Below, one piece after another: positions 26,134 through 30,902 of a stretch of 64,000 bases of DNA (positions are counted from its first letter, which is position 1; each line of letters opens with the position of its first letter). Under the pieces are notes generated by a model. That model worked only from the letters and a program-made list of their open reading frames with translations, was not told the DNA's origin and made no database searches. The DNA is from Acholeplasmataceae bacterium. Lineage in GTDB: Bacteria; Bacillota_I; Bacilli_A; Acholeplasmatales; Acholeplasmataceae. Position numbers and translations under genes: made by a program. The stretch spans positions 128,001 through 192,000 of the forward strand of contig OY775910.1 of assembly GCA_963675245.1 (NCBI GenBank), given 5' to 3'.

Positions 26134-26997
26134 ATGACGATAAAACACTATCCAGCTGATAGAAGTTATTCAGCATTGTTTGAAGAAGTCAGACAGTTTA
26201 TTTTACGGTTAAACGAAAACCATACGTATGATATTTATCATTGGTCAAGATGGGAATGGTATTTTGCCAGACATAGTTTTAGAACTGAAGATCTTCAAAA
26301 GATGTTGTTATTTTATGAAGATCAAAAACTTCAAGGTGTACTCATGCTTGAAGATGAACCTAACATCTACTATTATTTAGCAACCAGTAAAGCAGTGAAA
26401 GCACAAATTGTGAGAGAATTAAATCATATGCCAGATGCGACGCTTATGATTGAAGAATCAGATTTAGATATGCGTGCATTAATCGCTTTATCTAATTGGG
26501 AAGAAACCGACTATATCGAACATATGGCAAAACTCACCAAAGACCATATACCTTATCAATTACCTGAAGGGTACGAACTCTTATGTATCAGAGATGACTA
26601 TGATGTCAAAAAACATCATGCATGTCTTTGGAAAGGTTTTGATCATGGTGGTGACATACCAATGAGTGATGAGCATCTTATGTATCGTGAAAGACAAGTT
26701 TCTTCTCCTCACTTTAAAAAAAGATATGCGTATGCTGCTACTTATCAAGATGAGTATGTCGCATGGACAAGTATTTGGTATCAAGAAGGTACGGATATCG
26801 CGATGATTGAACCAGTTTGTACAGTACCTGAACATCGTCGAAAAGGATTAGCTTCTGCGACAATTTCTAAATGTGTGGATGCTGCTATAAGAGATGGAGC
26901 AAAACAGATCATTGTTGGTTCAAATAAGAAACTATATTTATCTTTAGGCTTTGAAGTCTATAAGTATGCCAGAGTATACAAACAAGCCGGTAAATAA
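26134..26997 (+). CDS. GNAT-family acetyltransferase
   Basis: EPVCTVPEHRRKGLA acetyl-CoA motif, LYLSLGF. Confidence 0.85.
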   Translation: MTIKHYPADRSYSALFEEVRQFILRLNENHTYDIYHWSRWEWYFARHSFRTEDLQKMLLFYEDQKLQGVLMLEDEPNIYYYLATSKAVKAQIVRELNHMPDATLMIEESDLDMRALIALSNWEETDYIEHMAKLTKDHIPYQLPEGYELLCIRDDYDVKKHHACLWKGFDHGGDIPMSDEHLMYRERQVSSPHFKKRYAYAATYQDEYVAWTSIWYQEGTDIAMIEPVCTVPEHRRKGLASATISKCVDAAIRDGAKQIIVGSNKKLYLSLGFEVYKYARVYKQAGK

Positions 26998-27156
26998 CTA
27001 TTTGTGTGTTATCATATGAGACAGAGGTGACTAACTATTAAAAGTCAAGTACTTTTAGTAGATAAACTGTAAAAACCTCCAATAGCCATAATTTTTAGAG
27101 GTTAGCCATATAACTGGATGATTTTATGACTTAACCGCCACAGTTTAAGGAATCAA

Positions 27157-28317
27157 TTATTGTAGTTTAGAGGAATCAAAATCTTCCTGATGTGTTTCGA
27201 GATGATGAATGACTCTAATGAGTTTTTTTGAAAGATGAACCAGTGCGACACGATGATGTTTACCCTCTTGTTTCTTCTTGGTGTAGTAGTCGTAGAAGAC
27301 GGGGTTATAGATCATAACCATCATTGAGATATTGATGAGTGTTGCTCTTAGGTACTTGCTGCCACGTTTAACCAGTTTACCTGTTGAAGACATGGTGCCA
27401 GACTGTCTGATGGTTGAATCCAGACCTGCATAGGATAACATTTCAGCGGGATTGGAGAAAAGTGAAATATCACCATATTCTGAAACGATGACAGCTGCTG
27501 AAATGATTCCGATACCTTTAATGGTTTGAATCTTAGTTGGATATCGATGCATTAAAGAAATGATCTGTTTCTCAGTTTCTTCGATATCTTGATTGAGTTT
27601 CTCAACATAAGAAATTGAAGTCTTAAGTTTGAATAGTTGATGATCTTGTGTCACACCAATGGTTGATTTTGCGAGTTCCTTCAGTTTAACAAACTTCGGA
27701 TAATTGAATTTACCCATCGATCGTTTACGAAGCTTATCGAAGTGGTCATCAGTCATCCTTGCTATTTTATCCGGTGATGAAAAGCGCTTCAAGATGTATA
27801 AAGATGTATCACTATAGCCTTGTTCTTGCATAAAAGGTTTGAATTCAGGAAAGATGACATCTAAGACCTTGGTCATCATATTGTAGTGTTTCGTCCGAAT
27901 TGAGATGAGTTTAAAACGTAACCTGGTCAGTGATTTTAAAGCACTTATATGATAAGATTGATGATGATAGGCTTTGTAGTCTACAGATCTCATATAAGTT
28001 GAAATCATTTGTGCATCTTTCTTATCCGTCTTTGTTTTTCTCAGTGAATGGGCTTCTCCAAACTTCTTCACGAGAAAAGGATTAATCTCCATGAATGAAT
28101 ATCCATGGAGGATAAGAAATGACTTAAGGTTTTCTCCATAATGACCTGTGGCCTCTAAGCCTATTATCATTTCTTGCTTGACTAAAGAGTTAAAGTATCC
28201 TAATAGTTCTTTAAACCCAGACTGACTGTTCTCAAATGAGAACTGATGGCTAACTGTTTCGGTGGCGATGAAACAGTCATGCTTGTACTTTGAAATATCG
28301 ATGCCGATATAGATCAT
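27157..28317 (-). CDS. IS110-family recombinase/transposase
   Basis: IGIDISK, EATG, KTDKKDA, IKGIG, YAGL..QSG. Confidence 0.95.
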   Translation of the reverse strand: MIYIGIDISKYKHDCFIATETVSHQFSFENSQSGFKELLGYFNSLVKQEMIIGLEATGHYGENLKSFLILHGYSFMEINPFLVKKFGEAHSLRKTKTDKKDAQMISTYMRSVDYKAYHHQSYHISALKSLTRLRFKLISIRTKHYNMMTKVLDVIFPEFKPFMQEQGYSDTSLYILKRFSSPDKIARMTDDHFDKLRKRSMGKFNYPKFVKLKELAKSTIGVTQDHQLFKLKTSISYVEKLNQDIEETEKQIISLMHRYPTKIQTIKGIGIISAAVIVSEYGDISLFSNPAEMLSYAGLDSTIRQSGTMSSTGKLVKRGSKYLRATLINISMMVMIYNPVFYDYYTKKKQEGKHHRVALVHLSKKLIRVIHHLETHQEDFDSSKLQ

Positions 28318-28339
28318 AAGTACACCTCCAAGAATTAAA

Positions 28340-28562
28340 TTTGTACGTGTGGTAAGTCCAGCAGCGTCTTTATCTCATAATCATGTAAAAAGCGTCTTCC
28401 GCTAACTAACTATTGCTGATTAAAATAAAGACCGTGGTAAGCGTCACCTCAAAATAGTCTAGGTTATAAAAATATGACACAGATCCACAGTACATTATTA
28501 GTATATTAAATTAGAACGAAAGGAGTAAAGATTTAAAGACTTAAGTAACTAACTTAATACAC
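28340..28562 (-). ncRNA. Putative IS110 bridge RNA
   Basis: Segments matching the circle junction (28405-28414, 28381-28388) and the empty target (28472-28477, 28443-28450) within closing stems. Confidence 0.7.
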
Positions 28563-28582
28563 TTTAAATCTTACATGACTAT

Positions 28583-29227
28583 ATGAAAGTATTTATTGCT
28601 GGTGATTCAACGGCAGCACCAAAGCTAGAAAGTAAACGTCCAGAAACTGGATGGGGAGAATGTATTCATGAATTCTTACCACCCATGTATGACATCTATA
28701 ATATTGCAGAGGATGGACGATCTACTAAATCCTTTATTGATGAAGGTAGATTAGACATTATTGAATCGAAAATAAAAAAAGGTGATCTGTTGATCATCCA
28801 ATTTGGACATAATGATGAGAATAATGATGACCCATCAAGATATACGACTCTATCTCAATATACAGCTAATCTTGACAGATTCGCAAAAGTCGCTATATCT
28901 CATGAAGCTATTCCTGTGTTTATTTCTTCTATTACGAGAAGAAAATTTGTCAATGGAAAATTAGATCCAGATGCTATCAAAGATTATCCAAACGCCATGA
29001 AAGTGTTCGCACATAACTACGGTTATCCCTTCATCGATATGTATAAAATTAGTCAAGATATTTTGAATAAACTCGGTGAAGAAGATTCATTAAAATATTA
29101 CCTTCATTTAAAACCAAGTGAGTATTCCAATTACCCTGAAGGTTTAGATGATGATACACACTTTAGTCCTTATGGTGCAAGGCAGTTTTCAGCGATCATC
29201 GCATCCCAGCTACTTAAGCTTTTATAA
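28583..29227 (+). CDS. SGNH/GDSL esterase, rhamnogalacturonan acetylesterase-like
   Basis: AGDST, GRST, QFGHND, DDTHF. Confidence 0.9.
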   Translation: MKVFIAGDSTAAPKLESKRPETGWGECIHEFLPPMYDIYNIAEDGRSTKSFIDEGRLDIIESKIKKGDLLIIQFGHNDENNDDPSRYTTLSQYTANLDRFAKVAISHEAIPVFISSITRRKFVNGKLDPDAIKDYPNAMKVFAHNYGYPFIDMYKISQDILNKLGEEDSLKYYLHLKPSEYSNYPEGLDDDTHFSPYGARQFSAIIASQLLKLL

Positions 29228-29346
29228 AAAAAATCAACCCTAGTAACTGGGGGGGAATCGCTACTAGGGTCTAGCCAGCGATCTAACGAATCATGGCAAA
29301 GCATCAAAGGGCTAAGCCAATCCACTTCGAAAGAATCATCTGACAC
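29226..29346 (-). ncRNA. Candidate ~120-nt sRNA
   Basis: TTGAAC-17-TATAAT promoter (29379-29351); terminal stem ACCCTAGTA/TACTAGGGT with C7 loop and U run. Confidence 0.5.
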
Positions 29347-29438: not shown

Positions 29439-30902
29439 GGCTCTATAATTATGTTAGGGGTGGATGATTTTATAAAGGGATATAAAAAAGCATAAGTAAA
29501 TCTTATAATAAAGGTAACCACACACTTTAGATAAGGAGTTTACTTATGCAAGACAATTATATCAAGAAAGTACTAAGAATTGAAGACGAGCACTTAAAGA
29601 TTAAGCAAATAGAGACCATTGAGAATGATATGCATGTCCATTTGAGATTCACACAAGGCTATCAATTATGTCCACATTGTGGGAGTTACACTTCTAAAGT
29701 TCACGACTATAGAGATAGAGTCATTAAGCATGGTGTCATCAATGGCTACCATGTGTATTTAAAATACAGACGAAGACGGTATGTCTGTAAACACTGCCAC
29801 AAGCGGTTCCCAGAACCTAATCAGTTCGTTGAGCGTTTCAATAAGATATCCAATGTCACGAAGCATCACATCTTAAGGGAAGCTGAATATGTCCAAAGCT
29901 ATACAGCCATCGCGAAACGTTTGAATGTCTCTGTGCCAACAGCGATGAGACATATCGATAAACACATCCAACCGAGCAGGTTAAAACTATCTGAAACGAT
30001 CAGTATTGATGAATTTAAAAAGCGCAACCTCGGCTATGGCAAATACGCCTTTGTCATCTGTGATCCCATCAACAAGAAAGTGATAGACGTGATGAGAAAC
30101 AGACGGACAGACTGGTTAAAGAATTACTTCAGTCAAATACCTTATGAAGAGCGCAGCAACGTTAAAAACGTCATTATGGACCTATGGGCACCGTACCGGA
30201 ATATCGTGAAAGCTTATTTACCTCATGCGCGCATTATCGCAGACACATTCCACTTCTTAAGATATATCTATTGGTCATTCAACGCCGTAAGAATACGCAT
30301 TATGAAAACATTTGATGAGGATTCTATCAACTATAAGATATTAAAGAAGCATTGGAAGCTCTTGATGAAGTCACCGAGCGACTTGAATGACACTTATTAC
30401 TACCATCATCTCTTAGAACAAAACGTCAATGATTATGTCATACATGATATCGCAGCGAATCTTCACCCGGATTTAAAAGAAGCTTTTCATCTTAAAGATC
30501 TCTTTCAAACCAGCATAGAAACATTATCTTATGAAGAGGCACCGGCTTTTATCAATCAATTCATTGATCTACTCAGACACGCAACCACCAAAGAATTTAG
30601 AGATATTAAGAAAACATTTATCAATTGGCGTCAAGAAATCGTTCAATCATTTGACCTTCATCCTGAAACACGTAAAAAGATGACGAATGGCATTGTCGAA
30701 GGTATTAATAACTTTATTAAAGTCATTAAAAGAACAGCTTATGGATTTACTGATTTCAACAGGTTCAGATCTAGAATTCTCTTTCTTTACAACAAAGATT
30801 ACACATTAAGTGCATAATGAAAAAACGCATTTAGATGAATCACCTAAAAATACGCTTTTCATTGATTTACTTATTCGGTACCCCTATCCTTGACAGAGAA
30901 CC
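29439..30902 (+). mobile_element. ISL3-family IS with 8-bp target duplication
   Basis: Ends GGCTCT.../...AGAACC with inner TAGGGG/CCCCTA; ATTGTTTA at 29431-29438 and 30903-30910. Confidence 0.92.
29546..30817 (+). CDS. ISL3 transposase
   Basis: CPHCG/CKHC zinc finger, ISIDEF, MDLW, ADTFH, TNGIVEGINN. Confidence 0.95.
   Translation: MQDNYIKKVLRIEDEHLKIKQIETIENDMHVHLRFTQGYQLCPHCGSYTSKVHDYRDRVIKHGVINGYHVYLKYRRRRYVCKHCHKRFPEPNQFVERFNKISNVTKHHILREAEYVQSYTAIAKRLNVSVPTAMRHIDKHIQPSRLKLSETISIDEFKKRNLGYGKYAFVICDPINKKVIDVMRNRRTDWLKNYFSQIPYEERSNVKNVIMDLWAPYRNIVKAYLPHARIIADTFHFLRYIYWSFNAVRIRIMKTFDEDSINYKILKKHWKLLMKSPSDLNDTYYYHHLLEQNVNDYVIHDIAANLHPDLKEAFHLKDLFQTSIETLSYEEAPAFINQFIDLLRHATTKEFRDIKKTFINWRQEIVQSFDLHPETRKKMTNGIVEGINNFIKVIKRTAYGFTDFNRFRSRILFLYNKDYTLSA

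Follow-up and report, generated by a model that had tools for sequence, protein, structure and literature searches.

In the scheme described for the insertion sequence (IS) IS621, the left target guide (LTG) and left donor guide (LDG) of a bridge RNA pair with the bottom strand, the right target guide (RTG) and right donor guide (RDG) pair with the top strand, and the cut in the top strand comes after the core; once the strands have been exchanged, two handshake nucleotides on the 3' side of the RTG pair with donor positions 6-7 (PMC11208158). For two other members of the IS110 family, IS900 and IS901 of Mycobacterium avium, insertion between the Shine-Dalgarno sequence (SD) and the start codon has been reported (Doran 1997 and Inglis 2003, cited in PMC2942039). 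The target motif is given as CATGNNNNNNTCTCCTT for IS900 (PMC8141618) and as CATGN6TCTCCTT for IS900/IS901, and IS900 is described as carrying an antisense open reading frame (ORF), hed, that has neither a ribosome-binding site (RBS) nor a start codon of its own (PMC8141618). Here we analysed a stretch of 64,000 nt from the genome of an Acholeplasmataceae bacterium (contig OY775910.1, positions 128,001 to 192,000 of the forward strand), which we call the window and whose coordinates are used throughout, features of the element lying on the minus strand unless marked otherwise. It contains an IS110-family element inserted immediately in front of an esterase gene. We give a probability of roughly 0.87 to the reading that this is an active-looking IS which an IS621-type bridge RNA, encoded in its left end, guides between the SD and the start codon of a host gene, antisense to that gene.

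The source genome (G000), a single contig of 1,626,300 bp with a G+C content of 33.9%, holds four copies of the element that are 100% identical, one protein residue differing in one of them. In 4/4 copies CACCTC stands to the right and, on the left, 5 nt past the core, is the ATG of a real ORF to which the transposase runs antisense. The genes hit encode a GDSL esterase (214 aa), a small acidic secreted protein (109 aa), dihydrolipoyl dehydrogenase (lpd, 456 aa) and glutaminyl-tRNA synthetase (glnS). Contigs assembled from three sequencing runs of one sample (X1-X3) contain an IS piece and four different continuations past the left end, matching the four loci, and a contig from a second sample (X4) spans the right-end junction at the esterase site, the side of the esterase gene having no coverage in X4.

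Comparison of the four copies fixed the boundaries. All right junctions read ...AATAGTTAGT-CA-CCTC and then pass into unrelated sequence, while the left junctions, in IS orientation, read ...CATATAGT-CA, ...CATACAGT-CA, ...CATATAAT-CA and ...CATAATAA-CA, followed in each case by TGTAAGAT. Because only CA is common to all four copies, the core is 2 bp and the body 1546 bp. An earlier, sequence-only reading had excised the IS at a shared hexamer, TGACTA; the hexamer is indeed present at both junctions (27028-27033 and 28576-28581), but the 6-bp repeat is peculiar to the window copy and one other, and the glnS copy shares CA alone with the IS end. Terminal inverted repeats are absent, the ends TGTAAGAT... 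and ...AATAGTTAGT being unrelated, and the CA core shared with the target stands at both junctions in place of an insertion-made duplication. The target before insertion is preserved in the closest sister genome (G006; GlnRS N-terminus 91% identical), where the region upstream of glnS is uninterrupted and equals the G000 site minus the IS, GAGGTG included. Since the empty site already carries GAGGTG, the SD is host DNA and not part of the IS. Esterase homologues in four sister genomes are likewise uninterrupted, with (GA)GGTGA 5-8 nt before the ATG.

The recombinase has an N-terminal RuvC-like DEDD domain (DEDD_Tnp_IS110, PF01548, 3.2e-36, residues 4-157, full profile) and a C-terminal Transposase_20 domain (PF02371, 4.7e-22), and its homologues in the PDB are the ISCro4 transposase (1e-16) and the IS621 transposase (1.7e-15). 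D7, E55, D98, D101 and S306 are invariant in 11 relatives down to 45% identity. S306 lies within QSG, aligned to ESG of ISCro4, and is the putative catalytic serine.

The left end of 258 nt folds, in its minimum free energy (MFE) structure, as a 5' hairpin followed by two internal loops (Table 1). All of the strings that the sequence-only reading had listed were found on the minus strand where it placed them, namely TCATAT at 28477-28472, GAGGTGAC at 28450-28443, AATAGTTAGT at 28414-28405 and TTACATGA at 28388-28381, with a stem-loop at the 5' end. The extents of the two target guides needed revision: TCATAT is in place, but the LTG segment is 10 nt long (28477-28468) and our own targets match only its first 6 nt, one register off; GAGGTGAC is also in place, but the RTG can extend 5' by up to four U (28454-28451). 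The RTG is an SD in sequence, (UUUU)GAGG, followed by UG for the core and AC as the handshake, and the LTG, UCAUAUUUUU, is the antisense of an A/U-rich spacer plus AUGA; both target guides together spell an idealised translation-initiation region. The donor loop matches the right and left ends as they would be joined in an excised circle, whose junction would assemble a TTGACT-17-TAAGAT promoter. In the mechanism that we propose, the recombinase-RNA complex would then exchange strands at the CA core within GAGG/TG, and an exchange at this position would place the IS between SD and start codon and, every time, in antisense orientation to the gene. The handshake AC of the target loop matches donor GT. 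TTGACT-17-TAAGAT is readable across the joined ends, and the same box and spacing recur in relatives, where they are partly built in by the rule used to place the boundaries (see below).

Table 1. Features of the IS110-family element and its insertion site, in window coordinates.
Feature	Position	Strand	Remarks
IS body, IS110 family, 1546 bp	27030..28575	-	4 genome copies; ends aligned to orthologues
GAGG of host SD	27024..27027	+	right target arm, CCTC in IS orientation, pairing with RTG; glnS empty site in G006
Core TG (CA in IS orientation), right-end junction copy	27028..27029	+	sole sequence common to IS end and target in all 4 copies
Right-end terminal 10 nt, AATAGTTAGT	27030..27039	-	left donor arm; same as LDG
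TTGACT, would-be -35 box	27043..27048	-	promoter existing only across circle junction (13 nt + 2-nt core + 2 nt, then TAAGAT); read from sequence
Inverted repeat AACCTC...GAGGTT, then T5	27071..27103	-	3' of transposase gene; terminator-like
Transposase/recombinase gene, 386 aa	27157..28317	-	Pfam and PDB matches
SD of the transposase gene, GGAGGTG	28323..28329	-	
Donor-binding loop (predicted)	28366..28432	-	outer stem GUCUUUAU/AUAAAGAC, 28432-28425 / 28373-28366
RDG UUACA; core-pairing UG; handshake AU	28388-28384; 28383-28382; 28381-28380	-	complements core and first 5 nt of left end
Donor-loop inner stem-loop AGCG-GAAGA-CGCU	28403-28391	-	
LDG AAUAGUUAGU	28414-28405	-	same as last 10 nt of right end
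Target-binding loop (predicted)	28432..28490	-	outer stem 28490-28485 / 28437-28432 (CUGUGG/CCACGG)
RTG (UUUU)GAGG; core-pairing UG; handshake AC	28454-28447; 28446-28445; 28444-28443	-	reads UUUUGAGG-UG-AC
Target-loop inner stem-loop, weak	28467-28454	-	
LTG UCAUAUUUUU, 10 nt	28477-28468	-	
Internal promoter-like site TTTACT-18-TATACT	28500..28529	-	9/12 matches; regional site number not above shuffles
Conserved CUCCUUUC	28518..28525	-	resembles 16S rRNA 3' tail; complement GAAAGGAG is an SD on the host-gene strand
Terminal hairpin	28528..28572	-	outer stem 28572-28562 / 28538-28528, starting within -10 box
TAAGAT, -10 box of would-be junction promoter	28568..28573	-	TATAAT in most relatives
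Core TG, left-end junction copy	28576..28577	+	
Spacer ACTAT + esterase ATG	28578..28585	+	left target arm, partly matched by LTG
GDSL-family esterase/lipase gene, parted from its SD	28583..29227	+	ATG at 28583

Several further features surround the predicted RNA. The inner hairpin of the terminal hairpin is likely the 5' stem-loop of the bridge RNA. A TATAAT-like box (28500-28505, minus strand; columns about 121-128 of the left-end alignment) is conserved in relatives 12-16 nt upstream of the target-loop stem, and may serve as an internal promoter from which integrated copies express a bridge RNA that lacks the 5' hairpin. A promoter scan returned 9 sites against 6.9 +/- 2.4 in shuffles, none of them reading outward at the left end, and no terminators; the terminator-like repeat downstream of the transposase gene was missed by this consensus scan, its loop exceeding the scan rule. 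Directly after the transposase stop (about 27128-27152, minus strand) stands a conserved small hairpin, ACTTAA-ACTGTGGCGG-TTAAGT, whose loop repeats the CUGUGG of the target-loop stem. Some 320 bp 3' of the esterase gene lies an ISL3-family transposase gene (29546-30817, plus strand; DDE_Tnp_ISL3 7e-59, Zn_ribbon_ISL3 4.4e-13), and the esterase gene is therefore bracketed by two different insertion sequences.

Relatives were collected by a protein search in 41 related genomes, our own included, with matches in 15, and by a one-genome-per-species scan that gave 464 stretches with relatives, of which the best 80 were kept as 79 loci. The hosts of the relatives kept are Acholeplasmataceae, other Mycoplasmatota, Izemoplasmatales, Erysipelotrichaceae, and Bacilli and Clostridia bins. 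Boundaries were placed by requiring TTGAC(T/A), 13 nt and a 2-nt core at one end and, at the other, that core again, followed by YGTA, at 235-320 nt upstream of the gene; this rule replaced a longest-repeat finder comparing the left end with the flanks, which was too noisy in A/T-rich DNA. Both ends were found in 79 of 100 loci, the 21 failures comprising 12 loci cut by contig ends and nine with sufficient flank that did not fit the rule. Removal of eight duplicate loci left 71 unique insertions, 56 of them with flank enough to test. We counted as SD-like any GGAG, GAGG, AGGA or AAGG in the 10 nt that run up to the core, and as a start any ATG, GTG or TTG 2-11 nt beyond the core that heads an ORF of at least 60 codons, or at least 25 if open at the locus end. 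An SD-like motif was present at 49 of the 56 insertions, a start codon with ORF at 48 and both at 44, compared with rates of 4.9%, 6.4% and 0.56%, respectively, when 210,458 positions of the same loci served as background. Among the 12 misses are one GGGGTG site outside the 4-mer list and three probable boundary errors (L051, L053 and L077); in the close group, 17/17 targets fit the SD/start description. A target logo from other copies, as the sequence-only reading had suggested, came out as a consensus of 58 targets that reads AAGGAGG-TG-A, an A/T-rich stretch, and ATG-AAA. The initiation region of the transposase gene itself (28306-28329, minus strand; GGAGGTG, 5 nt, ATGA) fits this consensus about as well as the glnS site does, and copies could therefore in principle hit one another; no nested IS-in-IS pair was seen in the G000 genome. 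At one relative (L037, JAVEQT010000076.1) the left junction has CT and the right junction CA, and its target core probably differed from the donor core at the second base. At another locus (L006/L032, G008:C1:1130734-1133255) a degenerate second IS110 copy, at 74% identity and with six stop codons, lies in the same orientation no more than about 200 bp downstream of the intact copy.

Guides and their DNA partners were found to change together. In 12 copies with transposases 73-100% identical, the ends, LDG and RDG are invariant, and RTG varies with the flank varying alongside it: GGGGTGAC faces the right flank CACCCC, AGAGGTGAC faces CACCTCT, GAAGGTGAC faces CACCTTC (3/3 copies), and GGGAGTGAC faces CACTCCC and also CACTTCC (one G·T). 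Orthologues at 73-90% identity pair GGGGTG with CACCCC, GAAGGTG with CACCTTC and GGGAGTG with CACTCCC. For the whole set, guides were read at constant distances from the conserved stems of the target loop in 69/71 insertions, two lacking the stem motif, and own guide-partner pairings were compared with all other pairings in 10,000 permutations, using one representative per type and treating types as independent. For RTG (60 insertions with at least 6 nt of right flank; 24 distinct 6-mers) the own pairing scored 4.13/6 against 2.76 for cross pairings, and for LTG (46 types of 62; best of three registers; positions after CAU) 4.57/7 against 3.55; in neither case did any of the 10,000 permutations reach the own mean. 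The donor guides were tested in an alignment of 36 left ends, drawn from the window element, L009 and, for L035-L113, 34 of 50 distinct left ends (the 16 omitted being mostly contig-cut or boundary-doubtful); there, the own mean was reached by RDG in 0 and by LDG (16 types) in 18 of 10,000 permutations. RNAalifold found compensatory changes in three stems, namely the outer (5 sequences) and inner (10) stems of the target loop and the inner stem of the donor loop (12, 3 and 8), and the donor-loop outer stem was recognised by eye only. Taken together, the domains, the homology to IS621 and ISCro4, the two-loop fold with its compensatory changes and the covariation of all four guides bear out the assignment to IS110 with an IS621-like bridge RNA made in the sequence-only reading. 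Its second claim, that the RNA is programmed for SD/start-codon junctions, likewise holds in 4/4 own copies, 17/17 of the close group and 44/56 testable insertions, with RTG variants tracking SD variants.

The left target guide fits less well. In the best relatives LTG matches target positions -2 to 7, scoring 9/10 in L022 and, at the GTG start codon of L008, 8 plus a wobble. A number of observations weigh against the proposed guidance, and this is the first of them: our own four targets match LTG at 2-3/10 in the register of the best relatives and at 5-7/9 shifted by one, and left-arm recognition would therefore be loose or partly half-matched. It seems that the right arm and core carry most of the specificity, and that the left arm mainly demands a nearby CAT; a 2026 preprint on IS621 reports 'half-match' insertion, which may be relevant to the loose left guide. 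Two own targets have positions 6-7 that pair with the target-loop handshake guide before exchange, a pairing that is described as blocking recombination in IS621 (PMC11208158). About 20-30 other gene starts in G000 match the guides no worse than the four occupied ones do. A scan of 26500-29300 with Rfam 15, which may hold no such family, gave no bridge-RNA match, the sole match being a chance snoRNA (E 0.7), and the contigs of the four sequencing runs, which drop rare forms, contain neither a circle junction nor an empty-site joint. Finally, the boundary rule builds the promoter boxes into the set of relatives, the nine loci with sufficient flank escaped that rule, and the relatives are not independent of one another.

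As for the downstream gene, the sequence-only reading held that insertion uncouples it from its RBS. As geometry this stands: about 1.55 kb now separates the SD from the ATG, and the part of the left end next to the ATG contains nothing SD-like. A gene that was simply uncoupled would be expected to lose its translation, but the insertions at housekeeping genes put such a loss in doubt, and the insertion may not silence the gene. At one own copy (L004, G000:C1:634982-636523) the IS lies between SD and ATG of the only glnS. GatB_N has no match in the G000 genome (99.96% complete) and is found in 12/14 control genomes; with no such match, the interrupted glnS is probably the only route to Gln-tRNA, and probably indispensable in this genome. 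Of the 53 target genes many are in housekeeping families, among them two class-I E/Q tRNA synthetases, ThrRS, GAPDH, D-Ala-D-Ala ligase, UppP, Fmt, the ribonucleotide reductase (RNR) small chain, GatC, HPr and two Lpd. The own lpd copy (L003, G000:C1:845511-847052) and L008 (G019:C25) occupy the same orthologous site, between an E2 gene and lpd, in two genera. Because the four G000 copies are near-identical to one another and their transposase is 84% identical to that of L008, these look like independent hits on the same site. Visual inspection for a promoter pointing outward, a leaderless start, a start codon upstream in frame or a coupling micro-ORF found nothing general across loci; the junction forms ATG-ACT-ATA-TGA overlapping the esterase ATG, a frame that fails at lpd and glnS.

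The strongest of the alternatives starts from these genes. It accepts targeting by the guides and supposes that a substitute SD, GAAAGGAG on the gene strand of the left end, is brought near the ATG by a hairpin and keeps the gene expressed; we consider this unlikely. Besides the occupied glnS and the many housekeeping families, it has in its favour that CUCCUUUC is nearly invariant across the 36 aligned left ends, whose transposases go down to about 45% identity. All 28 distinct left ends are predicted to form the terminal hairpin, with differing sequences, and its 5' arm begins at left-end nt 4, inside the -10 box of the junction promoter; an RNA begun at that promoter would lack the 5' arm, and the hairpin would therefore be confined to single-stranded DNA and to read-through transcripts, whichever their strand. 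A spacing of 3 nt, hairpin, 2 nt and motif occurs in 20/35, and a sum of 5 nt in 24/35. Even with the hairpin closed, however, about 12-13 unpaired nt remain between GGAG and ATG, and an SD-to-start spacing of 12-13 nt is longer than works well. The motif and hairpin would equally fit a read-through terminator or a fold-back block active only on transcripts from outside. RNAalifold alternatively pairs CUCCUUUC with the SD of the transposase gene, neither side varying and the pair therefore showing no covariation, and essentiality is judged from family names, most relatives being metagenome bins. If this alternative were true, a large clade would use a universal initiation signal as its landing pad and bring a replacement SD with it, being nearly harmless in any host.

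It is very improbable that the link to gene starts comes from selection or from protein-DNA recognition, the guide-like strings being coincidental. Single strings do give this idea some room. In 200,000 mononucleotide shuffles of the left-end interior the LTG 6-mer appeared in 32,932 (16%), and it is weak taken alone. With the four copies removed in silico, the genome has 313 CACCTC sites against 292 expected from composition, which is no enrichment, and 110 of the 313 (35%), all four occupied sites among them, have a start codon 2-11 nt downstream heading an ORF of at least 50 codons in any case. The other guides were far rarer in the same shuffles, with the RTG 8-mer in 157, the LDG 10-mer in 196, the RDG 8-mer in 1,696 and two or more of the four guides in 340, and the four-guide set is far beyond chance. 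Moreover, all four guides covary with their partners across elements, and within one genome copies with the same RTG sit at fitting flanks.

A proposal made for IS900, that the IS captures a host SD so that its own 'hed'-type ORF, on the strand opposite the transposase, is translated, matches our locus in target type and orientation but has hardly any probability here: there is no plus-strand ORF of at least 60 aa with an ATG, GTG or TTG start inside 27030-28575, and the reading frame that follows the host SD offers only an ATT and runs into a stop after 11 codons. Weakest of all is the notion that CACCTC belongs to the right end of the IS, which would then insert upstream of start codons without any need for an SD, because, although TAGTCACCTC stands at the end of 4/4 own copies, it is refuted by the empty glnS site in G006, the esterase homologues keep the SD without any IS, and post-core bases differ among copies of one orthologue element type (for example CTTCC vs CTCCC).

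The class of targets between SD and start codon is thus already known from IS900 and IS901; what is added here is the readable guide logic and the natural guide-target series. The trait extends over a wide clade of elements in low-G+C bacteria. Our literature search found no publication tying SD/start targeting to bridge or seek RNAs and none describing IS900 guides; the main text of Durrant 2024 contains none of the terms Shine, RBS, start codon and IS900, and its supplements may list such targets. Guidance by an SD-like RNA would give a mechanistic reading of the nearly 30-year-old observation that IS900-like elements land between RBS and start codon. The anti-SD of 16S rRNA is nearly universal, and an SD-like guide would therefore find targets in any new host, which may explain the spread of the clade over Mycoplasmatota, Bacilli and Clostridia. 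The relatives further offer a natural series of reprogrammed guides, with at least 24 RTG variants and matching flanks, that could inform the design of bridge recombinases. The insertions at housekeeping genes, in turn, raise the question whether the IS preserves translation of the interrupted gene.

Compared with IS621 of Escherichia coli (PMC11208160, PMC11208158), the element has the same RuvC-like DEDD and Tnp domains, its predicted guide RNA lies in the left end upstream of the recombinase, and the order of 5' stem-loop, target loop and donor loop is the same, the left guides having the top-strand sequence and the right guides its complement. A 2-nt handshake guide 3' of the RTG matching donor positions 6-7 and a 2-bp core are also common to both, and the promoter that is split across the circle junction in IS621 may have a counterpart here in the TTGACT and TAAGAT boxes. 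In contrast, the core is CA here, and CT in some relatives, rather than CT as in IS621; LTG and LDG are both 10 nt and end before the core, whereas in IS621 they are 9 and 8 nt and reach into it; RTG is 4-8 nt instead of 4 nt; and the target is an SD/start junction instead of a REP element. Unlike IS621, the element also has an extra terminal hairpin overlapping the -10 box, followed by the conserved CUCCUUUC. Similarity to the IS621 protein is just 1.7e-15 and confined to the N-terminal domain, and the best match among solved structures, the ISCro4 transposase (PDB 9t56, 1e-16), aligns over both domains (residues 3-157 and 222-383) and is distant in sequence. With IS900 the comparison is one of target motif and orientation. 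IS900 and IS901 come from an actinobacterial host, and the hed ORF of IS900 has no counterpart here. The form of the IS900 motif equals that of our targets, especially in the CT-core relatives (…CAT-N6-7-CT-CCTT), and, like IS900, the element inserts between SD and start codon in one orientation, in 4/4 own copies and 44/56 insertions overall.

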